Of a stretch of 64,000 nt of DNA, positions 2,891-39,763 are shown piece after piece. Position numbers and translations under genes: made by a program. This stretch comes from Syntrophomonadaceae bacterium (GTDB taxonomy: Bacteria; Bacillota; Syntrophomonadia; Syntrophomonadales; DTU052). The number at the start of each line of letters is the position of its first letter. The stretch's first letter is position 1. The notes below the pieces were generated by a model that was not told where the DNA came from, searched no databases, and saw only the letters and a program-made list of their open reading frames with translations. Location: contig JAAYDA010000048.1 in the NCBI GenBank assembly GCA_012729505.1, positions 70,222-134,221 on the forward strand. Direction: 5' to 3'.

Positions 2891-4228
2891 TCATGCAATC
2901 GAGCCAGCTAATTGCTGGATAGTCTGATCATAAGATACGTTTTCATTGATTTCCTGCCGTAAGAATTGGTTACAGGGTGCAATATATTTCAGAGCCTCAT
3001 CAATGCCGGGATTGGAACCATTTTTATATGCTCCGATATCAACTAAATCCTTCGCATCTTTATACGTTGCCAGGATACTGCGGAACCGGGCCGCCAAACC
3101 CAGATGCTCTTCAGATACTATTTCATTCATAAGCCGGCTGACACTTTGCAAGACATCAATTGCAGGATATCTGTTTAATGCAGCCATTTCGCGACTGAGA
3201 ACAATATGGCCGTCAACAATGCCTCTTACGGCATCAGTTATTGGCTCATTCATGTCGTCCCCTTCCACCAGAACCGCATATAAACCGGTTATGCTTCCAA
3301 GTGATGAAGTGCCCGCCCTTTCCAGCAGTTTGGGGAGCTGAGCAAATACCGACGGAGTAAACCCCCGGGTCGTGGGAGGCTCACCTATGGCCAATCCCAC
3401 TTCTCGCTGTGCCAATGCAAACCGGGTGATGGAATCCATCAGCATCAATACATCAAGGCCCTGATCCCGGAAATACTCCGCAATAGAAGTGGCCAAAAAA
3501 GCCCCTTTTATTCTAATCAAAGCCGGTTGATCCGAAGTCACTACGATTATTACTGATCGCTTTAACCCTTCTTCTCCCAGGTCCTTTTCTAAAAAATCCC
3601 TGACTTCACGGCCACGTTCCCCAATCAGAGCAATTACATTTATATCAGCCGACGTATTGCGGGCAATCATTCCCATCAAAGTGCTCTTTCCCACTCCGCT
3701 GCCAGCCATTATACCCACTCTCTGTCCTTTCCCCAGGGTGATCAGGCCATCGATAGCTTTGACCCCCAGAGATAGAGCATCTACTATTCTGGTTCTATCC
3801 AGCGGATTTGGCGGTGAATTCATAACCGGATACTCTCTTTCGACATGTAAAGGACCCAAATTATCCATTGGGCGGCCTAAGCCATCAAGAACCCGACCTC
3901 TCAAGCCTAAGCCTACCGGCACAGTTAATCTTTTTCCGGTAGCTGTTATCTCACAACCGGGACCGATTCCATCCAGCTCACCCAATGGCATCAGTAAAGT
4001 CCGGTTATCTCTAAAACCGACGATTTCAGCATATAGTTCATAATCACTGTCCGCATCGGGCTTAATGTGACACAATTCACCCAAGCTTGCTCTGGGACCG
4101 ATAGATTCGATCGTCAACCCTACTATCTGAGAGATACGGCCTTTTTGCTGCCAAATTTGGGTTTTGGCCAGTATGTCCTCATACTTTTCCAGAATTGTCC
4201 CCAGCTCATTCACAGATAACCGGATCAC
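2891..4228 (-). CDS. fliI: flagellum-specific ATPase FliI
   Basis: Walker A GSGVGKST, Walker B-like VLMLMDSITRFA, and overall F1-beta/T3SS-ATPase layout. Its 5' end overlaps the fliH 3' end. Confidence 0.95.
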   Translation of the reverse strand: MIRLSVNELGTILEKYEDILAKTQIWQQKGRISQIVGLTIESIGPRASLGELCHIKPDADSDYELYAEIVGFRDNRTLLMPLGELDGIGPGCEITATGKRLTVPVGLGLRGRVLDGLGRPMDNLGPLHVEREYPVMNSPPNPLDRTRIVDALSLGVKAIDGLITLGKGQRVGIMAGSGVGKSTLMGMIARNTSADINVIALIGERGREVRDFLEKDLGEEGLKRSVIIVVTSDQPALIRIKGAFLATSIAEYFRDQGLDVLMLMDSITRFALAQREVGLAIGEPPTTRGFTPSVFAQLPKLLERAGTSSLGSITGLYAVLVEGDDMNEPITDAVRGIVDGHIVLSREMAALNRYPAIDVLQSVSRLMNEIVSEEHLGLAARFRSILATYKDAKDLVDIGAYKNGSNPGIDEALKYIAPCNQFLRQEINENVSYDQTIQQLAGSIA

Positions 4229-5000
4229 GCTCTACCCCTTCCAACAAAGCATTCTCAATTGCCGTAATTCTGGTTTCCAATCTGGCATCGACAATGCCCA
4301 AATCGGAGTCTATTATGCAGCCCCCGTCAGTTATCCTGCTATCACTCTTAATCTGCAGCTTGCCTCCGCTTTGACCCAGCTGATTACGAGCTGATTCTTC
4401 TGCCAGAAACTCGAAATCCCTGGAACTGACAAATATCTTAAATGCTTCACTATCGCCAAGCTGCTCCATAATTTTACTTACAATGTTTTTAGTAATATCG
4501 GGAATTTCCGTTATTTCCTTATCAACAATTTTTTTTGCAATAGCCAATGCCATTTTTACAATGATTTCTTCACTGGTATTAATAATTTTCAGCCTTTCCA
4601 GCTGCGCCTCTTCCAGAATTCTGATATTCTCTTCTCTCATCTGGTCCATCTCGGCTTGTTTCTCCAGTACCGCTTTGGCTATACCTTCCTGATAACCTTG
4701 TTCTAACGCATCCTCTCGAACAGATACAGCTTCTTCCGCTGCTGAAGCTTCAATTAACCCGGCAGCTTCTTTGGCCTCTGTAATTATTTTATGAGCTTCC
4801 TCACGAGCCTTTTCCAATATATCCAGGGCCATTGTTTCAGTATCCTGCAAAATACCATTGGCCTCTTCTCGCGCTCTCAGTAAAATTGCTTCATCGTCTA
4901 TCGGCATATAATCCTTATAAGTAACCTCGAGCTTGGGTGATCTTTTCATCGAGAAAGGTTCGGCAATAACCGTCTGATCGGATTTAACAATGTTAGACAA
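4206..5000 (-). CDS. fliH: flagellar assembly protein FliH
   Basis: Glu/Ala-rich helical N-half and a FliH-type C-terminal domain. Lies between fliG and fliI with overlaps at both ends. Confidence 0.7.
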   Translation of the reverse strand: MSNIVKSDQTVIAEPFSMKRSPKLEVTYKDYMPIDDEAILLRAREEANGILQDTETMALDILEKAREEAHKIITEAKEAAGLIEASAAEEAVSVREDALEQGYQEGIAKAVLEKQAEMDQMREENIRILEEAQLERLKIINTSEEIIVKMALAIAKKIVDKEITEIPDITKNIVSKIMEQLGDSEAFKIFVSSRDFEFLAEESARNQLGQSGGKLQIKSDSRITDGGCIIDSDLGIVDARLETRITAIENALLEGVERDPVICE

Positions 5001-19057: not shown

Positions 19058-19116
19058 GATTGTATAACCCCATAATAATGATAATACACAAACTATATTT
19101 CCAAAAACCAAAAGAG

Positions 19117-19155
19117 CTCTGTATCCCTGATTTATTGGGGGTTACAGAGTCTTTT
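19117..19155 (+). terminator. probable terminator after comM
   Basis: CTCTGTATCCC / GGGTTACAGAG stem (10 bp plus one mismatch) followed by TCTTTTG. Confidence 0.55.
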
Positions 19156-19191
19156 GGGCTCAGTTTGCTGTCAAACTCAAAAAAAGCGGTC

Positions 19192-19220
19192 TTGAATCTA
19201 GTCTGCCGGCAAAGTATGTA
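19192..19220 (+). promoter_or_regulatory. candidate sigma-A-type promoter for the sigma-54 activator gene (TTGAAT-N17-TATGTA)
   Basis: Hexamers and 17-nt spacer read by eye, about 50 nt upstream of ATG 19269. Confidence 0.3.
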
Positions 19221-19268
19221 ATAAGATTAAATTAGTCTTGACATCCAGGGAAGGGAGGGATAGGAAGC

Positions 19269-21284
19269 ATGAAAGCTGTTCACCCGCCTTCAGCGATGGA
19301 CGTTGCCTGGAAACGTTTCATATTATATGGCAAGGTAGAGGATTCATCGCCAGTTCGCCCCGAGATTGTGGATTCCTGGTGCAGATGCTATGCGGCGGGA
19401 GTAAATCCTTACGACGGCGCCAGTCATCTGGTTTTGAACGAGAATCAACTTGAGGATCTGCTGAACAAGCATCAGGAGCTGATTGACGTAGCTCGCCCTT
19501 TCATGACGAAATTGTATGAGTTTGTGGCGGGATCGGGTTTTATCGTTCTTTTAGCGGACGAGCGTGGATATATGATAGAAGTGATGGGTGATTACGATAG
19601 CCTGGAGAACGCCGGCAAGGTCAATCTGAGCCGGGGCTACGGCTGGATGGAAGAGGAAGTGGGCACCAACGGCATCGGAACGGCATTGGTCCTGGGACGT
19701 CCTTTTCAGGTATCGGGCCGGGAACACTATTGCCGGAAGATTCATTCCTGGACCTGTTCAGCCGCTCCGATCATTGACGAAAACGGACATATACTGGGCG
19801 CTCTGCAAATGTCTGGACCTTCCAGCGGAGCCCACCTGCATACCCTGGGGATGGTAGTGGCGGCGGTGGAAGCGATTTCCCACCAAATAAGGATAAAAAA
19901 ACAGAACAGCGAATTAACGGTACTGAACAACAGCCTTAATGATATTTTTCAGACCATGTCCGACGGGGCTTTGCTTATCAATATGAAGGGCGTAATAAGT
20001 CAGATTAACCCGGTGGCCGAGCAGATATTGGGGGAGGAGGTACTGGGGAACTCCATATATAAAGCCTTTGGAGGCTCGGAAGAAATCGCGTTGATGCTGT
20101 CGCCGGATAGAACCTTCGCTGACCTGGAAGTGATTATAGATACCGCCAGAGGCCGTTTGCACTGCCTGGCTACCAGCAAGCCCATCAAGGATGAGTACGG
20201 CCGGGTGACCGGCGCGGTTGTCTTCTTCAATCCTATCAACAAAGTCAAAAATCTGGTCAATCGCTTGAACGGCGCCCAGGCCAGCTTCTATTTCAAGGAT
20301 ATCATCGGCGGCAGCCAGAAACTTCAAAAGGCTATCCAGGTGGGCATGCGGGCGGCGTCCAGCACCAGCAACGTGCTCATCCAGGGTGAAAGCGGCACCG
20401 GCAAAGAACTGTTTGCCCAGGCCATCCACAACCAGAGCCGCCGCCGCAAAGGACCGTTTATTGCCTTAAACTGCGCCGCCATTCCCCGGGAGCTGATCGC
20501 CAGCGAGCTGTTTGGGTATGCGGAGGGCGCCTTCACGGGGGCCAGGCGGGGCGGGAGACCCGGCAAATTTGAATTGGCTGCGGGAGGGACTCTTTTCCTG
20601 GATGAGATTGGAGATATGCCCCTTGATCAGCAGGCCTCCCTGCTGCGGGTCCTGCAGGAAAAGAAAATTACCCGGGTGGGGGGAGAAAAGATTATCCCTG
20701 TGGATGTGCGGATAATTTGTGCCACCAACAAGAATCTGCAGACCGAGATTGGGAAGCGTAATTTCCGGCCGGACCTGTATTATCGCCTGAATGTGATAGA
20801 AATTTACGTGCCTCCTTTACGGGAGCGTCGGGAAGATATCGAACCGCTTTTTAATTACCTCCTGGACAAGATCGCCGGGAGAATGGAGATGAAAATCGAA
20901 TACATTGAGCCGGGCGTTTTAGAAAGCCTCCGGCGTTACGATTGGCCGGGCAATGTCCGGGAATTGGAAAACGTAGTGGAGAAAATAATCAATATGGTCA
21001 GGGGATCCGGCATCATGCCTGAACACCTGCCCGCGGAGATCATATCCCTGCATCCAACCTTCAAACCTGGGTATGATCCCGGATCTTCCAATCTCGATAC
21101 GGAGAAAGCGTCCCTGGCGGAAAGCCGGGCGCATACCACGCCGGAGCGGGAGGCGCTGCTGAATTTGCTGGACCGCCACCAGGGCAATATCAGCCGGGTT
21201 GCCCGTGAAATGGGGGTTTGCCGCAACACCGTTTATCGGAAAATGAGACTCTACCATATCGGCAGGGAATCTCACTTCGATTAG
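19269..21284 (+). CDS. sigma-54-dependent transcriptional activator, AcoR-like (N-terminal sensory GAF/PAS region, AAA+ core, C-terminal Fis-type HTH)
   Basis: AAA+ core [21 protein letters not shown] loop ([13 protein letters not shown]), LFLDEIGDM, and C-terminal [24 protein letters not shown]. The N-terminal WKRFILYG...[12 protein letters not shown] is typical of the AcoR family. GGAGGG SD. Confidence 0.9.
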
Positions 21285-21323
21285 CCCCGGACTTACATAA
21301 TACGCTGTACGCGCCTGTGATTG

Positions 21324-21362
21324 AGCACCTGTTACACGAAAAGGAACAGGTGCTTCATTTTG
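21324..21362 (+). terminator. 10-bp perfect hairpin (AGCACCTGTT-N11-AACAGGTGCT) plus TTCATTTT: terminator of the activator gene and/or activator binding site
   Basis: Read directly. Begins 40 nt after the stop codon. Centred roughly 120 nt upstream of the predicted sigma-54 start site, so a UAS role is equally possible. Confidence 0.45.
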
Positions 21363-21433
21363 AGGAGATATTTGATCGGGAAGCTTGGCGTTCCTTGGAG
21401 ATAACCCCTCGAATCGACCAGCCTTAATCCAGT

Positions 21434-21449
21434 TGGCACGTTATTTGCA
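21434..21449 (+). promoter_or_regulatory. sigma-54 (-24/-12) promoter TGGCAC-gttat-TTGCA
   Basis: Exact match to the TGGCAC-N5-TTGCW consensus, 135 nt upstream of the aldehyde dehydrogenase ATG and directly downstream of a sigma-54 activator gene. Confidence 0.8.
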
Positions 21450-21583
21450 TAAGTGAATAGGCAGAAGAATGCTACATGCTGTGGACCGCATTAGGCAAGC
21501 GGAATCAGAACCGTAAAAAGGGGGGGATCTAAAGGGCAGTAAAAGATGTTATCCGGCTTAGTGAGCATAAGGAGGGATTTATA

Positions 21584-23059
21584 ATGGGAAAACCGATCGA
21601 CAAGAGCTACAAATTATATATCAACGGTAAGTGGGTAGACAGCAAAGAAGGACGGACTTTCAAAGCCTACAACCCGGCCAACGGAGAATTGCTGGCCACT
21701 TGCGTCGACGGCGGCCGCGAGGATGTGGATGACGCCGTAAAGGCTGCCTGGAAGGCTTATGAGACCTGGAAAGATGTCAGCCCACAGGAACGGGCTGGCT
21801 ATCTGCTCAAGATCGCGGATAAAATAGAGGAAAATGCGGAAAAACTGGCCCTGATCGAAACCCTGGACAACGGCAAACCGATCCGGGAAACAAGTGACAT
21901 CGATATTCCCCTGGGCGTTGATCATTTCCGTTATTTCGCCGGGGCCATAAGAACCGAAGAAGGCCAGGCCGTCATGATCGACAAAGACCATATGAGCATC
22001 ATTTTAAGGGAGCCTCTCGGGGTGGTGGGCCAGATCATCCCCTGGAACTTCCCCTTCTTAATGGCCTGCTGGAAAATAGCCCCGGCCCTGGCGGCCGGCG
22101 ATACGGTGGTGATCAAGCCTTCTTCCGAAACCTCTCTGAGCCTCTTGGAGCTGGCCAAGATTTTAGGCGAGGTCCTGCCTCCCGGGGTGGTCAACGTGGT
22201 TACGGGAAAAGGCTCCACCACCGGCAATTACCTTCTGGAACACGAAGGTTTCCGGAAATTGGCCTTTACCGGTTCCACGGAAGTAGGCTACCAGATAGCC
22301 GCCGCCGCCGCCAAAAAGCTGATTCCGGCCACTCTGGAACTGGGAGGCAAGTCGGCCAATATATACTTCCCCGACTGCCCCTGGGATAAAGCCGTTGAAG
22401 GTACTATGATGGGCATCCTGTTTAATCAGGGCCAGGTGTGCTGCGCCGGTTCCAGGATCTTCGTACACCGGGACATCTATGACAAGTTCCTGGCGGCCAT
22501 GGCGGAAAAATTTGAGCGGGTCAAAGTCGGTCTGCCCTGGGAAGAGGAGACCCAGATGGGCAGCCAGATCAATAAAGGCCAGGTAAACAAGATCCTGGAC
22601 TATGTGGAAATTGGCCGGCAAGAAGGGGCGAAGCTGGTTACCGGAGGCTATCAGATTACCGAAAACGGCCTGGATAAGGGGAACTTCGTCAAGCCCACCA
22701 TCCTGGCCGACGTAAACAATAAGATGCGGGTGGCCCAGGAAGAGATCTTCGGACCGGCCGCCGTGGTCATCCCCTTTAAGGATGAAGCCGAAGTGATCGC
22801 TCTGGCCAACGACAACGAATACGGTCTGGGCGGCGCCGTATGGACCAAGGATATTAACCGGGCTTTCCGGGTGGCCCGCGGGGTGGAAACCGGGCGCATG
22901 TGGGTGAACACCTACAACCAGCTGCCTGCCCATACGCCCTTTGGCGGCTATAAAAAGTCCGGTATCGGCCGCGAGACCCACAAGATGATGCTGGCTCACT
23001 ACAGCCAGAGCAAGAACCTGTATATCAGCCTGGATGAGAGTCCCTTCGAACTTTATTAG
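21584..23059 (+). CDS. NAD(P)-dependent aldehyde dehydrogenase
   Basis: 491 aa. Catalytic Glu motif LELGGKSANIYF and catalytic Cys motif FNQGQVCCAGSR. AGGAGG SD. Confidence 0.95.
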   Translation: MGKPIDKSYKLYINGKWVDSKEGRTFKAYNPANGELLATCVDGGREDVDDAVKAAWKAYETWKDVSPQERAGYLLKIADKIEENAEKLALIETLDNGKPIRETSDIDIPLGVDHFRYFAGAIRTEEGQAVMIDKDHMSIILREPLGVVGQIIPWNFPFLMACWKIAPALAAGDTVVIKPSSETSLSLLELAKILGEVLPPGVVNVVTGKGSTTGNYLLEHEGFRKLAFTGSTEVGYQIAAAAAKKLIPATLELGGKSANIYFPDCPWDKAVEGTMMGILFNQGQVCCAGSRIFVHRDIYDKFLAAMAEKFERVKVGLPWEEETQMGSQINKGQVNKILDYVEIGRQEGAKLVTGGYQITENGLDKGNFVKPTILADVNNKMRVAQEEIFGPAAVVIPFKDEAEVIALANDNEYGLGGAVWTKDINRAFRVARGVETGRMWVNTYNQLPAHTPFGGYKKSGIGRETHKMMLAHYSQSKNLYISLDESPFELY

Positions 23060-23090
23060 GGTCCGGTCCCCTGAAAAAAAGTAGTGGCCC

Positions 23091-23128
23091 GGGAGCAACA
23101 GGCCGGCCTGTTGCTCCCGTATTTTTTT
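23091..23128 (+). terminator. rho-independent terminator after aldehyde dehydrogenase
   Basis: GGGAGCAACAGG-CCGG-CCTGTTGCTCCC (12-bp perfect stem) followed by GTATTTTTTT. Confidence 0.85.
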
Positions 23129-23320
23129 GATTTAGTCAATTATCGAACTGCATGAGGTGGGAAATAAATTATGCGGGGGCTTACCCACTTAATCTTGACA
23201 CGGACATCAAAGATGGCCCATATGCAATAGCTGGGTATAATGCTATAATATGTTTTAATAACTTAATACAGTAAATTTCATTATATCTATGCCCCGGCAT
23301 AATAATTATGGGGGAGGAAT

Positions 23321-24322
23321 ATGAACAAATCCACTGTAACCCGAATACTTTTCAAGCTCCTGCTGATATTTCTCGTCGTGACCATATACTTTTACTTTCA
23401 AAAACCGATCGAATACAGATGTACCAACCTAAAGGCTGTGATACCCATTGATGATATGACCCTGGTCATCGATGATATCCGTATTTCAGATCGGGACCAG
23501 GAAAAGCTTAACAGTCTGGCCTCATCGGGAATCCCCTGGATCTATGAAAAAATATTGGAAGCAGGTCTTCCCTGGAACTGGACCGTAAAGCTCTTTAACG
23601 TAGTGGCATTCTATACCTACACACCCCGCACTATGGAAAAAGCTGATATTAATATCTCCGGAGCCCTGCTCTATCCAGCAGAAGCCCGGAATTCCATTAA
23701 AAGCAGTGATGCATGGAATAATTTTAAAATGAGTATCTCTCCGGGAAACCTTAGCAGTAATGGCGCTCGCTTCAATTCAAGCAACAACTACTGTTCTGTC
23801 TTTTGCGGAGGCACATTTAACCTTAAAGATTTAAATAAAAAACTGACCTTATCCATTACAGATAAAATCAACAATAAGACCATCTATATCTACATTAGCC
23901 CCCAATGGAAAAAAACTCGGCCCTTAAACCAAGGGGCCTCTGGACTGGAAAAAGACTTAAACAGCCCTGTAAGATCATTTGTCAATCATTTGGCTAACAA
24001 CAACATCCAGGCAGCTATGGAAAACATCATGCCTGTATTAAGAAATGATTTTGAAATTCCTCAACTGGACATTAATTTCCGAAATGATGAAATCAGGTAT
24101 ACTTCCGAATATATAGCCTATTTGATGGGATATAGCGGCGCTTATAAGATAACTGCTGAAGCCGGTAGATTTCTCAATGAAGAGCAGACTGATTTTGAGG
24201 CCACTTCCGATGAGAGGCTGATTTTCTATGTCGCCGGGAATGACAGAGACGGCAAATTCTATATTACCAGGGTCCATCAACCGTATGTCTCCGGGTCAGA
24301 TACCGATCCCGATGTCCCTTAA
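23321..24322 (+). CDS. hypothetical membrane-anchored protein (single N-terminal TM, extracytoplasmic body)
   Basis: GGGGGAGG SD. The N-terminal VTRILFKLLLIFLVVTIYFYF is a signal-anchor-like segment. I recognise no family. Noticeably more AT-rich than the preceding two genes. Confidence 0.6.
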   Translation: MNKSTVTRILFKLLLIFLVVTIYFYFQKPIEYRCTNLKAVIPIDDMTLVIDDIRISDRDQEKLNSLASSGIPWIYEKILEAGLPWNWTVKLFNVVAFYTYTPRTMEKADINISGALLYPAEARNSIKSSDAWNNFKMSISPGNLSSNGARFNSSNNYCSVFCGGTFNLKDLNKKLTLSITDKINNKTIYIYISPQWKKTRPLNQGASGLEKDLNSPVRSFVNHLANNNIQAAMENIMPVLRNDFEIPQLDINFRNDEIRYTSEYIAYLMGYSGAYKITAEAGRFLNEEQTDFEATSDERLIFYVAGNDRDGKFYITRVHQPYVSGSDTDPDVP

Positions 24323-24416
24323 ACCGGTACTATATAATCGTTCCTTAGTAACTGTAAACGTAAAAAATAGCCGCTCTGCCAACACCGCCCCAGCGGACAA
24401 TCTGTGTCATATGCTC

Positions 24417-24452
24417 CTAAAAAGAAGAGGCCATCCTTTTGGGACAGCCTCT
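24417..24452 (-). terminator. rho-independent terminator for the acyl-CoA dehydrogenase transcription unit
   Basis: Minus-strand RNA AGAGGCUGUCC-CAAAA-GGAUGGCCUCU (11 bp including two G-U pairs that become C-A mismatches on the plus strand) followed by UCUUUUU. Confidence 0.75.
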
Positions 24453-24520
24453 ATGATCCTCTACTCTATCACCTAACTTACACATTTTTACGGCTCATCA
24501 AGACCAGTTACATTAACCTG

Positions 24521-24793
24521 TTACTGATTTAAGACCAAAGATGAATTGACGGTGAATTCCACAGCCTGGTCGACATTAACCGCTTCTGGGGCTGTCGTGC
24601 TAATGGTGTAATCGGAGTAGGTTTCCTCTACCGGTGCCGCTTCTAGGCTTACACCTTCACCGATGATCACCTTGAATTCCTGGGTTGAGGCTTCGTTCCA
24701 AACTACGATGGCGGTGAATTTCTGGCCTGCTTCTGTTACCTGCGGATACCACCAGACTGCAATAGGATGATTATGGATTCTGGATATAAACAT
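24521..24793 (-). CDS. possible small protein of unknown function
   Basis: 90-codon ORF filling most of the 318 nt between the acyl-CoA dehydrogenase stop and the terminator. Its ATG overlaps the upstream gene by 23 nt and the only SD-like GGTGG abuts the ATG. No recognisable family. Confidence 0.3.
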   Translation of the reverse strand: MFISRIHNHPIAVWWYPQVTEAGQKFTAIVVWNEASTQEFKVIIGEGVSLEAAPVEETYSDYTISTTAPEAVNVDQAVEFTVNSSLVLNQ

Positions 24794-26486
24794 CCACCAG
24801 ACTGTACACTTCTTCGTTCAGGACCTTTTCAAATTCCTCTTTATTGGGTACCGGGCGCTTGATCATTTTCATGATCTTATCCAGTTGGGCCTCGGTGTTG
24901 ATAGGTTTTCCGTACAGCTCAACGGCATAGGCTGAAAAATCCCTGACAAAGACGTCGAAGATCTGGTTCAAAACCTCATCACTGATACCTTCGATCTTGG
25001 CGCTTTCAATGATTAGCTGACCGTAAACCACCATGGTAAACAGTTCTCCTACCGCCAGCAAGTAATCGAAGTCCATCATCTGCCTAGCAAGGCCTTCCCC
25101 GGATACCATCAAGAATTCCTTATAACCCTCTATCTGGTCCAGAAACACCTTAACATTCGGCAGATGGGCCACAGAATTATATGCAATGTTATAATCATGG
25201 AATTTGGTGCGGGCATATCCGCGGGTACGGCCCTGACGGAACATGAAATCGTCATTGCGGTTGTCGGTAATCCTGCCTATATCCTCAAACTCAGCCGGCA
25301 TAAACATATAGCTGGGAATCAGTTTTATAATCAGGGCCATATTCACATGGCTGGTGCCTTCCAGCTTGGGGAAGCCCACCAGCTCCATCACCGCCTGTTC
25401 AAAATACATATCTTTTTCGAAGCCTTTGGCAGCTATAATATCAAAAAGCAGCTCATGAACCTTTTCCCCTTGCATGGCAACCTTCATTTTCATAATGGGA
25501 TTGAAGAGAAGATACCGTTTATCATTCTCGTTAGCTATCCGCATATAGTCGGTTGCCCGGAGGCCGAACAGCTTCATCGCCATAATTCTCAGCCAGGCAT
25601 CAGAAAAGAGCCTTTTGACATGAGCAAAATCCGTAACCCTGTTGCCATATAACATCCGTTTATAAGCATGATTCAAAGCCTCATAAAAGGAGTGGGTCAC
25701 GATACCGGTGGCACCTGAGCCAATGTTGAATTTGCATATATTAATGGTATTCAGCATATCGTCCCAGGCTTTGGGGCCCCGGGAAAGGATTTCGGCCTCG
25801 GAAATGGGATAGTCGTGAAGCTTTATTTCAGCCACATACTGCTGGTTGGAATCAGTAATGTTTTTGACGCATTCATAATTGGGATGTGCAGAATCAACCA
25901 CAAAAAACACATAATCATCGGTTCCGTCAATCTTACCGAAAACCGTTACCGTACCGGCCACATTACCGTTACCTATATAATACTTGGTGCCCCTGCCCAG
26001 GTATGTCCCATCTGGCTGGGGATATAACTTCATTTCGGTGGAATAGATGTCGGCGCCATGCTCTTTCTCTGAAAGCGCAAAGGCACATAAAGCATTTTCC
26101 TTCAACTTTGCTGCGGCTTTATGCTTGGCTTCCTCGTTGTCGCCCAATAGAACCGGATCCAGACCGAGAGTGGATACATGGAAGGTATACCAGTAGGCTG
26201 CTCCATAAAACCCGCAAATCTCTGAGAATTCATACATCCGATAGGTGCTGTAGTACTGGTTGGGATCCGACCCGTAGCCTTGGGGAAGAAATAGTGTCTC
26301 AAAAAAACCTTCTTCAGTTACGAACTCTTGAAAATCTTGGCAGAACTCATGTTTATGATACTGTTCTTTATGTTTGGTCAAACCTTTTTCCTCGAACCAG
26401 TCGATCATCTTAAGCATAATCTCCTTGGACCATGCATCGGGGTAATTCCTATCCCGATATTTCTTAGGATTCAGTAGTATGCTCAT
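24771..26486 (-). CDS. long-form acyl-CoA dehydrogenase family protein
   Basis: About 571 aa. ACAD-like middle-domain motif FALSEKEHGADIYS and KYYIGNGN, with a helical C-terminal domain. The ORF-track ORF extends to 26537, but ATG 26486 follows AAAGGAG by 7 nt. Confidence 0.8.
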   Translation of the reverse strand: MSILLNPKKYRDRNYPDAWSKEIMLKMIDWFEEKGLTKHKEQYHKHEFCQDFQEFVTEEGFFETLFLPQGYGSDPNQYYSTYRMYEFSEICGFYGAAYWYTFHVSTLGLDPVLLGDNEEAKHKAAAKLKENALCAFALSEKEHGADIYSTEMKLYPQPDGTYLGRGTKYYIGNGNVAGTVTVFGKIDGTDDYVFFVVDSAHPNYECVKNITDSNQQYVAEIKLHDYPISEAEILSRGPKAWDDMLNTINICKFNIGSGATGIVTHSFYEALNHAYKRMLYGNRVTDFAHVKRLFSDAWLRIMAMKLFGLRATDYMRIANENDKRYLLFNPIMKMKVAMQGEKVHELLFDIIAAKGFEKDMYFEQAVMELVGFPKLEGTSHVNMALIIKLIPSYMFMPAEFEDIGRITDNRNDDFMFRQGRTRGYARTKFHDYNIAYNSVAHLPNVKVFLDQIEGYKEFLMVSGEGLARQMMDFDYLLAVGELFTMVVYGQLIIESAKIEGISDEVLNQIFDVFVRDFSAYAVELYGKPINTEAQLDKIMKMIKRPVPNKEEFEKVLNEEVYSLVDVYIQNP

Positions 26487-26710
26487 GGGCGAACTCCTTT
26501 CACTAAACTGATTAGCTCTAAGAATAATATATACCAAACGTATTGTTCTGAATAGTATATTTACGCTTCGTATATTATGTTCGGAAAATCTGCTGCCAGG
26601 AAATTGGATGTATCTCTGTAATTACAAACCAATCCATTAAGACCGCCATATAACCCACGGATATTCATGTTAATAAGGATAAAAAATGAATAGTCGGACG
26701 GTGCGTATTG

Positions 26711-27121
26711 CTATACGCTTTTGAGAAAATCATCAGGGGAAATCGCTTTAACAGGAGAGTCATTGAAGTCCTTCAGGTTCCGGGTAATGATGCAATCGAC
26801 TTTTCCCCGTTTGGCGCAGACAGCAAGCAAAGCGTCTTCGTAATCCGGCATGGGGAGCTCCAGCGCCTTCTCGCAGTCAGCGCCGGTGACATCCAAAATG
26901 TTAAAAAGCGTAAAGAGTTTGAGAAGGGCCTGCCTGCATTGGGTGTCGTCGCGCAGATACTTGTGCAGCAGATAGTGAAGATCGGTTACGCTGTTTGCTG
27001 TAATGCAAGCGCTGATTTTGTCCTCGGCAGCCATGATGAACAGCTTTTGAGCGGGTTCGTCGAAAGGGACGCGAGCAAGCAAGGCGTCCAGTATGACATT
27101 GGTGTCAATCAATACATTCAT
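26711..27121 (-). CDS. vapC: PIN-domain toxin (VapC-like ribonuclease)
   Basis: 136 aa. N-terminal MNVLIDTNVILD (first acidic PIN residue), later acidic residues, and C-terminal IITRNLKDF. The 5' end overlaps the upstream antitoxin by 17 nt. Confidence 0.85.
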   Translation of the reverse strand: MNVLIDTNVILDALLARVPFDEPAQKLFIMAAEDKISACITANSVTDLHYLLHKYLRDDTQCRQALLKLFTLFNILDVTGADCEKALELPMPDYEDALLAVCAKRGKVDCIITRNLKDFNDSPVKAISPDDFLKSV

Positions 27122-27332
27122 GTCGGCTCAAACGTTCCTCTCTTGCCTGCTCCAAGGAAGCATCGGCAGGCAAAATGCCAAACAGCGATTTGGCCATCTC
27201 AACTTTATCTTGGTTGATGCTGATGAGCTTGGCGACACGCTTCCCATTTTTAGTGATATAGATATCCTCTTCGGAAACAAGCGCCAGATACTTCCCAATG
27301 TTGTTTTTAAACTCAGTGGCGGTGATTAACAT
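27105..27332 (-). CDS. Phd/YefM-type antitoxin
   Basis: 75 aa. N-terminal ITATEFKNNIGKYLALV...IYITKNGKRVAKLIS is typical of Phd/YefM antitoxins. GAGGAGG SD. Immediately upstream of the PIN gene. Confidence 0.8.
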   Translation of the reverse strand: MLITATEFKNNIGKYLALVSEEDIYITKNGKRVAKLISINQDKVEMAKSLFGILPADASLEQAREERLSRHECID

Positions 27333-27378
27333 GTAACAACCTCCTCATGTTAAACATAGGGTTTTTTATCCTGATTTT

Positions 27379-27407
27379 ATTATACAAAAATCGTGCGATT
27401 TGATCAA
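27379..27407 (-). promoter_or_regulatory. sigma-A-type promoter of the toxin-antitoxin operon (TTGATC-N17-TATAAT)
   Basis: Read on the minus strand. Consensus -10 and 4/6 -35 with a 17-nt spacer, about 45 nt upstream of the antitoxin ATG. Confidence 0.6.
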
Positions 27408-27635
27408 TATAATTCGAACGAATATTGTTTTGAGGTTTGTTCGGTGGGAAAATGACAATGCCCTATCCTCCAACATGAAGAAGAGCACAATTTTCATTAT
27501 TACCAAATGATTGGTTGATTATTCCATTTACACAGTCTTATTTACACTCCCGTTCAATTAAAACTTAGCTTGCGGTTATGGTGCTGCTTGGTGTTACGTT
27601 TAAGCTTGGGATCAACGGTATACCCCTATCGAACT

Positions 27636-28409
27636 TTATTTGCCTTTATTCATCTTGGCCAGGGAGCCCTTTAACTCATTTATTACGGCCGGATTACTAA
27701 ATGTTTCTACAAAGCTTGAAAAATCACAGGTGTCTATTGCTTCCCGGGCTTGCTGGGCAGCCTGTTTTCTTTGAGCCGCCTTGATTGCAATAAAAGGACG
27801 GCCAGGGGTGTCAATATACTCGCGAACTATGGCTTTGGCCCTCTCCAGCAGCTCCCCTTCTTCTACCAGTTCATCAAGTACTCCCATTTCCAGTGCCACC
27901 GATCCCGGAATTCTTTCACCTTTGTATATTACTTCTTTCCAATTCTTATTGGTTTCAAGTCCGTACTTCATTATTTCACCATGGCATGGGGATAAAGACA
28001 TTCCCAGCTTAATCTCCGGCATTCCTACTTTTGCTTTGGGGTCATCAGTCATGATCCGGTAATCGCAAGCCTGGGTTATGATTAAGCCGGCGGCACTGGC
28101 ATGGCCGTTCAATGCCCCTACGACCGGTTTCGGGCAGGTAAAGAGCTTGTACATAATCTCCTCGTCATCTTTAAACCAGCTTATTATATGCTCCGGCCCT
28201 TCGAAGGTAGTAAAGGTGCCCAGGTCAAATCCACTGGAAAATATGCGGCCGGTACCGGTTAAAACCAAACCCTTCAATTCCTCTTCTGTGCTGACCCGAT
28301 CAATGGCTTTTTCCAGTCCCTTTAACACCTCAGTATTAAGAGAATTTGCCGGCGGATTATCAATAGTAAAAATGACTATGTTATCTTGGATATCGGTTTT
28401 ATATGACAC
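27636..28409 (-). CDS. enoyl-CoA hydratase/isomerase (crotonase) family protein
   Basis: 257 aa. Crotonase-fold motifs (LVLTGTGRIFSSGFDL, ALNGHASAAGLIITQACDYRI). GGAGG SD. Confidence 0.9.
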   Translation of the reverse strand: MSYKTDIQDNIVIFTIDNPPANSLNTEVLKGLEKAIDRVSTEEELKGLVLTGTGRIFSSGFDLGTFTTFEGPEHIISWFKDDEEIMYKLFTCPKPVVGALNGHASAAGLIITQACDYRIMTDDPKAKVGMPEIKLGMSLSPCHGEIMKYGLETNKNWKEVIYKGERIPGSVALEMGVLDELVEEGELLERAKAIVREYIDTPGRPFIAIKAAQRKQAAQQAREAIDTCDFSSFVETFSNPAVINELKGSLAKMNKGK

Positions 28410-28462
28410 AGCACAACCTCCACAATTATTAGTTTTTGGGAATTCTCTGTCTTCATTAAATA

Positions 28463-28491
28463 ATTATACAGAATAATGGAGTACAGGCCAA
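28463..28491 (-). promoter_or_regulatory. candidate sigma-A-type promoter for the enoyl-CoA hydratase gene (TTGGCC-N17-TATAAT)
   Basis: Read on the minus strand about 55 nt upstream of the start codon. Confidence 0.45.
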
Positions 28492-28501
28492 GGCATAGAT
28501 G

Positions 28502-28521
28502 AAATCTCCTAATTGAGATTT
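28502..28521. promoter_or_regulatory. 7-bp inverted repeat AAATCTC-N6-GAGATTT just upstream of the -35 above
   Basis: Read directly. The position (about -45 to -65) would suit an activator/repressor site. No family assigned. Confidence 0.2.
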
Positions 28522-28594
28522 TCATCTCATTACTTTTATAGGAGTGTTACCCATGTCTTGAACCATTTCTGTTACCTATTCCTAACCGAACTGT

Positions 28595-28756
28595 CTTTCG
28601 TCCTCCCCGTCCCCCCGTTCTCACATTCTCCTTTCGCCTTTCGCCTCACCCCTCACGTCCTCCCCTTTCGCCTTTCTCCTTTCGCCTCACCCCTCACCCC
28701 TCACGTCCTCCCCTTTCGCCTTTCTCCTTTCGCCTCACCCCTCACCCCTCACTCCT
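28595..28756. repeat. polypyrimidine heptad tandem array, locus A (two identical 48-bp units plus degenerate flanks)
   Basis: 28654-28701 and 28702-28749 are identical. Each unit reads tcctccc ctttcgc ctttctc ctttcgc ctcaccc ctcaccc ctcacg. The plus strand is almost purine-free. Confidence 0.9.
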
Positions 28757-28853
28757 AATAGAATAGACTAATTTGTTAATTGGAAGTAGACTATAAGAGA
28801 ATTCTAAATTAATAATCATTTATGCAATACTTTCATAAAAAAGGAAGGTTCAA

Positions 28854-29327
28854 ATGGAAAAACAACCGGTTGCCCGTGACTGCTTTATCTGTGGTTGGAA
28901 TAATGAGATCAGTATGAAAGCCGATTATTACAATGATGTTGAAGCCGGCCAGGTATTTACAGAAGTGACCATTCCCTCATACGGTGACGGCTGGCCAGGT
29001 ATTGCCCACGGAGGAATTGTCGCAGCCTTGTTAGATGAAACCTCCTATCGTTCTATTTGGCTGGATGGCAATTACCAACGGGTTATGGCTACAGCCGAAA
29101 TGGATGTGCGCTTCCTTCGCCCCACCCCCACAGGTCAAACTCTGAAAGCGGTGGGATGGACGGTGGAAATGGACGATGTACAGGCCCAAGTAATAGCCGA
29201 AATCAGGCTTCTTGACGGAACTGTAACCGCCCGCTGCAAAGGTCTGCTGCTAAAACCATCAGAAGCTTTCCTGGAAAAGTGCAATTATGAGGCAGAAATA
29301 TCTGTCTGGAAGGTCCGCGAAGACTAA
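28854..29327 (+). CDS. hotdog-fold (PaaI-like) acyl-CoA thioesterase, paralog 1
   Basis: 157 aa. N-terminal CFICG..N motif and GxAHGGIVAALLDE hotdog active-site region. AAGGAAGG SD. Confidence 0.8.
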   Translation: MEKQPVARDCFICGWNNEISMKADYYNDVEAGQVFTEVTIPSYGDGWPGIAHGGIVAALLDETSYRSIWLDGNYQRVMATAEMDVRFLRPTPTGQTLKAVGWTVEMDDVQAQVIAEIRLLDGTVTARCKGLLLKPSEAFLEKCNYEAEISVWKVRED

Positions 29328-29345
29328 TTTCGAGAGAGGTGCATT

Positions 29346-29813
29346 ATGGAAAATCAGCCTAATTCCCAGGTTTGTTTTATATGTGGAAGAGAGAATGAAG
29401 TAGGTCTCCAAGCCCAGTATTATAACGACGCTGTTAACCAGCAAGTGATCGCCCATATTACCATACCCTCACGCTTCAACGGTTGGCCGGGCTATGCGCA
29501 TGGCGGGATTGTCGCTGCTCTGTTGGACGAAGGTTCCTTTCGGGCCATCTGGATTGACGGTAACTTTCAGCGGACAATGGTTACTGCGAATCTAAATATT
29601 CGGCTTCAGCGCCCTACTCCCACTGAACAGCCTGTAAAATCCGTGGGATGGATAATAGATATGAATGAAAGCCGAGCCAGAGTGGGCAGCGAAATACGTC
29701 TTCTTGACGGTACTGTTACCGCCCGTGGCGAGGCAACTCTGGTCAGAGCACCCGATTCCTTTATAGGAGCTAAGGATTGGGAGCAGTTGCAAACCAATTG
29801 GAAAGTGGGATAA
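29346..29813 (+). CDS. hotdog-fold (PaaI-like) acyl-CoA thioesterase, paralog 2
   Basis: 155 aa, colinear with paralog 1 (CFICGRENEVGL, GYAHGGIVAALLDE, RLLDGTVTAR). Starts 18 nt after paralog 1. Confidence 0.8.
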   Translation: MENQPNSQVCFICGRENEVGLQAQYYNDAVNQQVIAHITIPSRFNGWPGYAHGGIVAALLDEGSFRAIWIDGNFQRTMVTANLNIRLQRPTPTEQPVKSVGWIIDMNESRARVGSEIRLLDGTVTARGEATLVRAPDSFIGAKDWEQLQTNWKVG

Positions 29814-29825
29814 TCCCGGTCAGAA

Positions 29826-39497: not shown

Positions 39498-39763
39498 TCT
39501 CTCGCCTTTCGCCTTCCGCTTTCCGCCTTCCGCCTTTCGCCTCTCACCTATCTCCTCTCACCTCTCACCTTACCCCTCTCGCCTTTCCCCTCTCGCCTCT
39601 CGCCTTTCCCCTCTCACCTCTCACCTTACCCCTCTCACCTATCTCCTCTCCCCTCCCGACTCCTCTCGCCTCTCGCCTCTCGCCTTTCCCCTCTCGCCTC
39701 TCGCCTCTCGCCTTTCCCCTCTCGCCTCTCGCCTTTCCCCTCTCGCCTCTCACCTATCTCCTC
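39498..39763. repeat. polypyrimidine heptad tandem array, locus B (37 heptads, consensus CTYTCRC)
   Basis: 23 in-phase 7-mers from 39499, a 3-nt slip, then 14 more. Contains nested 21/28-bp higher-order units. At most one purine per heptad on the plus strand. Confidence 0.9.

Follow-up and report, generated by a model that had tools for sequence, protein, structure and literature searches.

A heptanucleotide repeat array, probably lineage-specific and neutral, between divergent hydratase and thioesterase genes of a Syntrophomonadaceae bacterium

The 64-kb window analyzed here, which is the whole stretch of 64,000 nucleotides from an uncultured, fatty-acid-degrading Syntrophomonadaceae bacterium, contains divergently oriented genes separated by a pyrimidine-rich repeat. 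Based on the ORF list and Pfam, the minus strand carries an enoyl-CoA hydratase gene (ECH_1) at 27636–28409, and the plus strand carries two PaaI/4HBT thioesterase genes in tandem at 28854–29327 and 29346–29813. The spacer between them is 444 nt long and contains a repeat tract at 28595–28756, named array A for easy description. An earlier first-pass annotation had named these neighbors and placed the array between divergent genes, 97 nt before the thioesterase ATG and with its pyrimidine strand on plus, and all of these points were confirmed. Array A therefore has the non-coding location of a heptanucleotide SSR, given the 444-nt spacer and the absence of any Pfam match in the ORF that crosses it.

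Array A is a tract of 162 nt and is 87% pyrimidine on the plus strand (C 89, T 52, G 11, A 10). Its left end is a degenerate, older part of 59 nt (28595–28653) made up of heptad-like units with C4 and C6 runs. Two 48-bp higher-order units follow at 28654–28701 and 28702–28749 on the plus strand, and the tract ends with the 7-nt truncated start of a further unit, cactcct, read directly at 28750–28756. String comparison shows that the two 48-mers are identical (CACGTCCTCCCCTTTCGCCTTTCTCCTTTCGCCTCACCCCTCACCCCT), and direct reading resolves each of them into six heptads and one hexad: tcctccc/ctttcgc/ctttctc/ctttcgc/ctcaccc/ctcaccc/ctcacg. The earlier description of two perfect 48-mers flanked by a degenerate and a truncated copy is thus borne out, and the perfect pair supports the recent duplication that had been read from it. 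Tandem Repeats Finder (TRF) reports period 48 with 2.8 copies, 95% matches, and a score of 234, and an underlying period of 7 with 16 copies and 72% matches, in which the copies are imperfect and the unit sequence is mixed. In self-comparison, lag 7 (0.65) and lag 48 (0.82) stand out from a level of around 0.4 at other lags. Both analyses identify the head-to-tail 7-nt iteration that characterizes a heptanucleotide SSR. The nine runs of four or more C claimed for the plus strand were all recovered where they had been placed. The minus strand of 28595–28756 is indeed rich in GGA, as had been proposed, but it carries 11 GGA motifs rather than about 8, together with 7 AGGA and 7 GGAG.

Predicted promoters flank the array on both sides. 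The thioesterase promoter is predicted on the plus strand with a -35 element TAGACT at 28764–28769, a 17-nt spacer, and a -10 element TAGACT at 28787–28792, and its -35 begins 7 nt past the end of array A. In an alignment, three other species show the motif AATrGACT-N17-GTAnAnT ahead of their thioesterase orthologues, approximately 50–60 nt before the ATG, and we infer the promoter position from consensus matching and this conservation across four species. On the opposite side, a putative hydratase promoter, TTGGCC-17-TATAAT, was placed by consensus match (10/12) at 28463–28491 on the minus strand. Its -35 lies 104 nt from array A, and it fires away from the array. A weaker promoter-like site on the plus strand at 28436–28464 could in principle transcribe array A. 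Furthermore, both divergent genes have the same 25-nt motif (AGAGAATTC..AAA..TAATAAT) shortly after their predicted -10. One arm (AGAGAATTCCCAAAAACTAATAATT) is at 28424–28448 on the minus strand and pairs with the other arm (AGAGAATTCTAAATTAATAATCATT) at 28796–28820 on the plus strand, forming a 25-nt inverted repeat with 76% complementarity. The occurrence of the same motif in both leaders supports the assignment of two outward-facing promoters, and the motif may represent a common operator through which the hydratase and the thioesterases are co-regulated. Two relatives (L134 and L137) carry the element AGAATTATTG in a comparable position. Directly upstream of the predicted hydratase -35, at 28498–28535, is a near-perfect palindrome, GATGAAATCTC-ctaatt-GAGATTTTCATC, that could be a regulator site; a weak Rfam chance match falls within it.

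A sister array, named array B, was identified at 39499–39763 on the plus strand between ylxM and a P-loop NTPase gene, with period 7 and around 37 copies. The pattern (CTYWCNC)x4 has 24 matches in the 64-kb window, all of them within arrays A and B and all on the plus strand, and it has no match in 100 dinucleotide-preserving shuffles of the window. The heptad ctttcgc of array A also occurs in array B, at 39506 and 39534. The shared heptad and the pattern search support the proposal that array A is the second member of the heptad family of array B. No further heptad array was found in the 64-kb window, where the remaining pyrimidine-rich stretches are ordinary coding sequence of minus-strand genes, and TRF found none in the 10 kb beyond its left end, which is a packed flagellar operon. 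Both arrays are located in a divergent spacer, directly upstream of the promoter of the plus-strand gene and with pyrimidines on plus. This shared placement hints at a positional rule, which with two arrays is not significant. Plus is the C-rich strand in both arrays and in the window as a whole, which has a strong strand asymmetry (GC skew -0.14 on plus). This skew and the location of most genes on minus make minus the probable leading strand. The G-rich strand of both arrays is also the minus strand, on which most genes of the window are encoded.

Comparison with related species allows the age of the arrays to be bracketed. No heptad array is present upstream of the thioesterase orthologues of three species (76–80% identity), whose gene neighborhoods differ from that of the window. 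Array B is absent from three relatives with 83–87% identical Ffh, in which the ylxM spacer measures 186–195 nt versus 426 nt in the window. The ylxM promoter TTGACT-17-TAAAAT and the leader palindrome GTAAAGCA..TGCTTTAC are conserved in these three relatives (L145–L147), and TRF found no period-7 array in approximately 95 kb of relatives' DNA. Since both arrays are absent from the relatives, we take them to be young and specific to this species. A pyrimidine-rich patch is found at the place of array B in two relatives (ctttccggttctctcccc in L147 and cttcccctgttcttctcc in L146), and it may be the seed from which array B grew. Compared with the closest relative, L145, the window contains an extra block of around 10.7 kb (approximately 19100–29820) between the Mg-chelatase-like and endonuclease IV genes, which are directly adjacent in L145. 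The block carries a sigma-54 activator, an aldehyde dehydrogenase, an acyl-CoA dehydrogenase, and a PIN/Phd toxin-antitoxin pair in addition to the hydratase, array A, and the two thioesterases, and it looks like an accessory beta-oxidation island.

Within the species, the tract is constant. The flanking thioesterase protein was found in NCBI, JGI, ENA, and Logan assemblies of Syntrophomonadaceae bacterium. The 444-nt spacer is identical in four of them (L001, L002, L004, and L148), and a fifth (L005) is identical over the 333 nt that it covers, the whole of array A included; the five comprise JGI, metaSPAdes, and MEGAHIT assemblies. The variable unit number suggested by the first-pass annotation was therefore not observed: the same two units are present in all five spanning assemblies, which come from few, probably related samples and are consensus sequences that hide minority copy-number variants. 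The three assemblies spanning array B also agree fully over it. The sole differences at array A are a C6-to-C5 change, which falls in the degenerate part (28595–28653) of one assembly, and one small scramble, each near a contig end in a low-coverage assembly. Several short contigs stop in or beside array A, as is usual for short-read assemblies. DNA-pattern scans of a metagenome contig collection gave no matches, and this collection evidently lacks the organism.

Based on these observations, we consider it fairly probable, at somewhat better than even confidence, that array A is a lineage-specific heptanucleotide SSR, a small minisatellite that is most likely untranscribed and has no sequence-specific function. 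The nesting of period 7 in period 48, with two perfect copies and more degenerate copies on the left, supports growth by slippage. Replication slippage on 7-nt units would have seeded and extended a pyrimidine-rich tract in the promoter-upstream spacer. A more recent out-of-register duplication, by slippage or by unequal exchange between heptads, would then have copied the 48-bp block, and the tract would persist since a promoter-upstream position tolerates it. With the promoters placed as predicted, array A would span roughly positions -40 to -205 relative to the thioesterase promoter and would stay more than 100 bp clear of the hydratase -35, on its upstream side. Because it is located between two outward-firing predicted promoters, it is most likely not transcribed. 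Any effect would presumably be passive at most, in that the tract lengthens the divergent spacer and in that a GC-rich, rigid tract replaces the usual A/T-rich UP-element region. The agreement between the C-rich strand of the arrays and that of the window fits a mutational origin over a functional orientation. A neutral perfect 48-mer repeat might be expected to vary in copy number, and none of the few, probably related samples shows variation.

A non-B DNA switch represents a different view of the same tract. In this model, negative supercoiling generated by the divergent promoters would extrude a G-quadruplex (G4) from the minus strand and an i-motif from the plus strand, thereby tuning one or both promoters. 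According to the twin-domain model, negative supercoils accumulate between divergent promoters, and array A is located at precisely such a site. The composition is also suggestive: the minus strand has nine tracts of four or more G, its G4Hunter maximum of 2.16 marks the strongest cluster of the window, and 32% of 25-nt windows score 1.5 or more. Related G-rich heptamers of Xanthomonas and Nostoc form G4s in vitro (PMC4692102). The arrangement of the tracts argues against the switch, however. They are spaced by 3, 24, 9, 3, 24, 9, 32, and 2 nt, so no canonical G4 motif is present in array A with loops of up to 7 or up to 12 nt, and a three-layer G4 would need a loop of 24–32 nt. The sole quadruplex that ViennaRNA predicts with G4 energies is a two-layer one in the degenerate part, and the native array receives -8.2 kcal/mol versus -43 ± 15 kcal/mol for shuffles of the same composition. 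A canonical G4 was rejected on these grounds, and the G-quadruplex and i-motif put forward by the first-pass annotation are weakened: the native order is less G4-prone than its shuffles and does not look selected for G4 formation. Given the G4Hunter maximum, a G4 with a single long loop may still form. In addition, array B has a lower G4Hunter maximum (1.76), and the G4-forming heptamers of Xanthomonas and Nostoc are under-represented between divergent ORFs (PMC4692102), which is where array A lies. H-DNA is unlikely as well, given that purines break up the pyrimidine strand at intervals of about 7 nt. Overall, we regard the non-B switch as unlikely.

If the plus strand of array A were transcribed, its RNA could instead act in cis, either as a rut site or as an anti-Shine-Dalgarno leader that pairs with the AAGGAAGG ribosome-binding site. 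In the rut version, Rho loading would stop antisense or read-through transcription short of the thioesterase promoter. RNA that is C-rich, G-poor, and unstructured has the textbook rut composition. The plus strand of array A, with 55% C and 7% G over 162 nt and an MFE of 0 kcal/mol, agrees with the rut profile (C-rich, G-poor, unstructured, at least around 70 nt) as far as composition goes. The promoter-like site at 28436–28464 would offer a weak start for such a transcript, direct reading shows Shine-Dalgarno complementarity in the CCUUUC and CCUCC units, and the (ATCTTTC)n repeat of H. influenzae hmw forms part of the 5'-UTR transcript and functions as RNA (PMC12721329). The conserved predicted thioesterase promoter lies downstream of array A, though, which would leave the array outside the leader. 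The array folded with the leader forms no stable array–SD pairing and is weaker than its shuffles (z = +1.83), and no G-rich partner for an hmw-like hairpin was found. We consider a cis-acting plus-strand RNA decidedly unlikely.

A structured RNA was a separate candidate and was rejected. Neither strand, alone or with its flanks, folds better than shuffles: the minus strand of array A has an MFE of -7.3 kcal/mol with z = +0.67, and the folds including flanks give z = +1.83 on plus and -1.21 on minus. At gathering thresholds no Rfam family was found in the whole window, and at E values up to 1 the only hit around the locus was one chance match outside array A.

Parts of these two views can be combined, with arrays A and B as insulators that act through Rho loading on antisense or read-through polymerases, or through supercoil absorption as non-B DNA. 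In both arrays the C-rich strand is the sense strand of the following gene, and slippage would tune the effect by array length. We think this insulator role very unlikely; if it were true, a repeat class that has lacked a function for nearly twenty years would acquire one.

Phase variation would make array A a contingency locus, in which the gain or loss of units switches the expression of the flanking genes. Perfect tandem copies are slippage-prone, and hmw (ATCTTTC)n provides a precedent (PMC12721329). The unit number, however, is the same in all spanning assemblies for both arrays, and array A is located outside the -35/-10 spacer, the leader, and the ORF, so that neither core promoter geometry nor reading frame would be affected. 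The neighbors, moreover, are beta-oxidation and thioesterase enzymes rather than surface antigens, and we find a contingency locus highly improbable here.

We give hardly any weight to a minus-strand small RNA whose GGA motifs sponge CsrA or another RNA-binding protein. The motif counts (11 GGA, 7 AGGA, and 7 GGAG) would suit it, and CsrA, S1, or Csp binding was proposed by MacGregor for other heptamer repeats (PMC4679880). The GGA-bearing RNA envisaged by the first-pass annotation nevertheless finds no frame at array A: there is no promoter-like site to its right that reads through it and no terminator on either side, both predicted promoters fire outward, no hairpins present the GGA motifs (MFE -7.3 kcal/mol, z = +0.67), no Rfam family matches, and the array is absent from close relatives. 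A repetitive protein encoded by the ORF at 28513–28758 (81 aa, TTG start), which spans array A and whose frame the 48-bp period keeps as a multiple of 3, deserves next to no credence, since pyrimidine tracts cannot contain stop codons and such ORFs arise automatically, the same artefact (107 aa) spans array B with a 7-nt period that breaks the frame, Pfam gives no match for the ORFs crossing either array, and direct reading finds no Shine-Dalgarno sequence before the TTG.

Similar arrays are widespread. Scanning one genome per species with one four-heptad pattern gave at least 120 loci in at least 120 species of many phyla, counts that show occurrence of this pattern and not enrichment over other heptads. 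The matches listed include Bacteroidota, Planctomycetota, Cyanobacteria, Proteobacteria, Acidobacteriota, Chloroflexota, Verrucomicrobiota, Gemmatimonadota, and Bacillota, as well as another Syntrophomonadaceae MAG. The units that recur among them are CTCACTC, CTTTCAC, CTCACGC, CTCACCC, CTTTCGC, and CTCTCGC. The orientation of neighboring ORFs was counted after masking the arrays, since pyrimidine tracts without stop codons confound ORF counts. An orientation bias relative to neighboring genes was rejected overall for the matches listed (++ 22, -- 28, -+ 23, +- 20). In 48 cases among them, the purine-rich strand is the sense strand of a neighbor that ends toward the array, and in around 30 of the 48 the array starts within approximately 12 nt of the neighbor's stop codon. 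The C-termini in these listed cases look genuine (MreB, aldehyde dehydrogenase, response regulator, and histidine kinase), and the arrays themselves supply TGA/TAA stops in all frames. This stop-codon-adjacent configuration matches the preference reported by Rehm et al. (PMC4692102), and neither array of the window has it.

One locus of Syntrophomonadaceae MAG-67 (L057, 3700–4403) contains a four-helix-bundle (23S rRNA intervening-sequence/Avd-like) gene at 3950–4303. The gene is flanked by inverted heptad arrays, with GGGTGAG/GAGTAAG upstream and CCCTCAC downstream, and its 5' part together with the upstream array is duplicated around 184 nt away. The idea that heptad arrays are scars of four-helix-bundle cassettes was rejected as a general explanation, since such a gene lies within 8 kb in 4 of the 120 matches listed and none is present in the window.

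Over-represented heptameric intergenic repeats have been known since 2007 and are still without an accepted function. Array A provides a clean Firmicute example of them. Its age is bracketed by its absence from species with 76–87% identical flanking proteins, and its position relative to a conserved predicted promoter is defined to a few bases. Together with the recent 48-bp duplication, these properties make it a convenient test case. The arrays also hold lessons for annotation: ORFs across such tracts are artefacts, and short-read contigs often break there.

Collectively, array A belongs to the described class of bacterial heptamer repeats, and nothing found points to a specific function. 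According to Rehm 2015 (PMC4692102), which cites Mrazek 2007, heptameric repeats are over-represented in bacterial intergenic DNA, and slippage is their proposed origin. The best-studied heptamers are GGGAATC in Xanthomonas and GGGGA(C/T)T in Nostoc; the G4-forming heptamers of these genera prefer the strand antisense to the next downstream ORF (PMC4692102). Like them, array A has a 7-nt unit iterated head-to-tail in intergenic DNA with one G-rich and one C-rich strand, lies near ordinary metabolic genes, and has its G-rich strand antisense to the ORF just downstream. Those heptamers differ strongly between related species; array A is present in this species and absent from its relatives, with an identical unit number in the few, probably related conspecific assemblies that span it. 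Unlike these single-heptad repeats, it mixes units (ctttcgc, ctttctc, ctcaccc, and tcctccc) within a 48-bp higher-order repeat. It also contains no canonical four-tract G4, lies between divergent ORFs, and resides in a Firmicute genome of around 47% GC.

The hmw repeat of H. influenzae offers a second comparison. It is phase-variable, with a copy number that varies, and base pairing of the transcribed array with a G-rich region creates an RNase III hairpin (PMC12721329). Array A shares with it a pyrimidine-rich heptad array upstream of a gene. In contrast to hmw, array A is located upstream of the predicted -35, has no hairpin partner (z = +1.83 and -1.21), and has an identical unit number in five spanning consensus assemblies. 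Accordingly, none of the hmw-type features (a promoter-spacer, 5'-UTR, or ORF position, copy-number polymorphism, and a long hairpin) was found at array A.

The third comparison is with the TAACTGA direct repeats of Beggiatoaceae, Cyanobacteria, and Bacteroidetes (MacGregor 2015, PMC4679880). In the Maribeggiatoa genome these occur mostly a few nt from start codons in short sets of 2–6 (PMC4679880). Array A differs from them in its unit sequence and in its position 97 nt from the ATG, upstream of the predicted promoter. It resembles them, and the cyanobacterial STRR heptamers, as an intergenic heptamer array with a patchy phylogenetic distribution.
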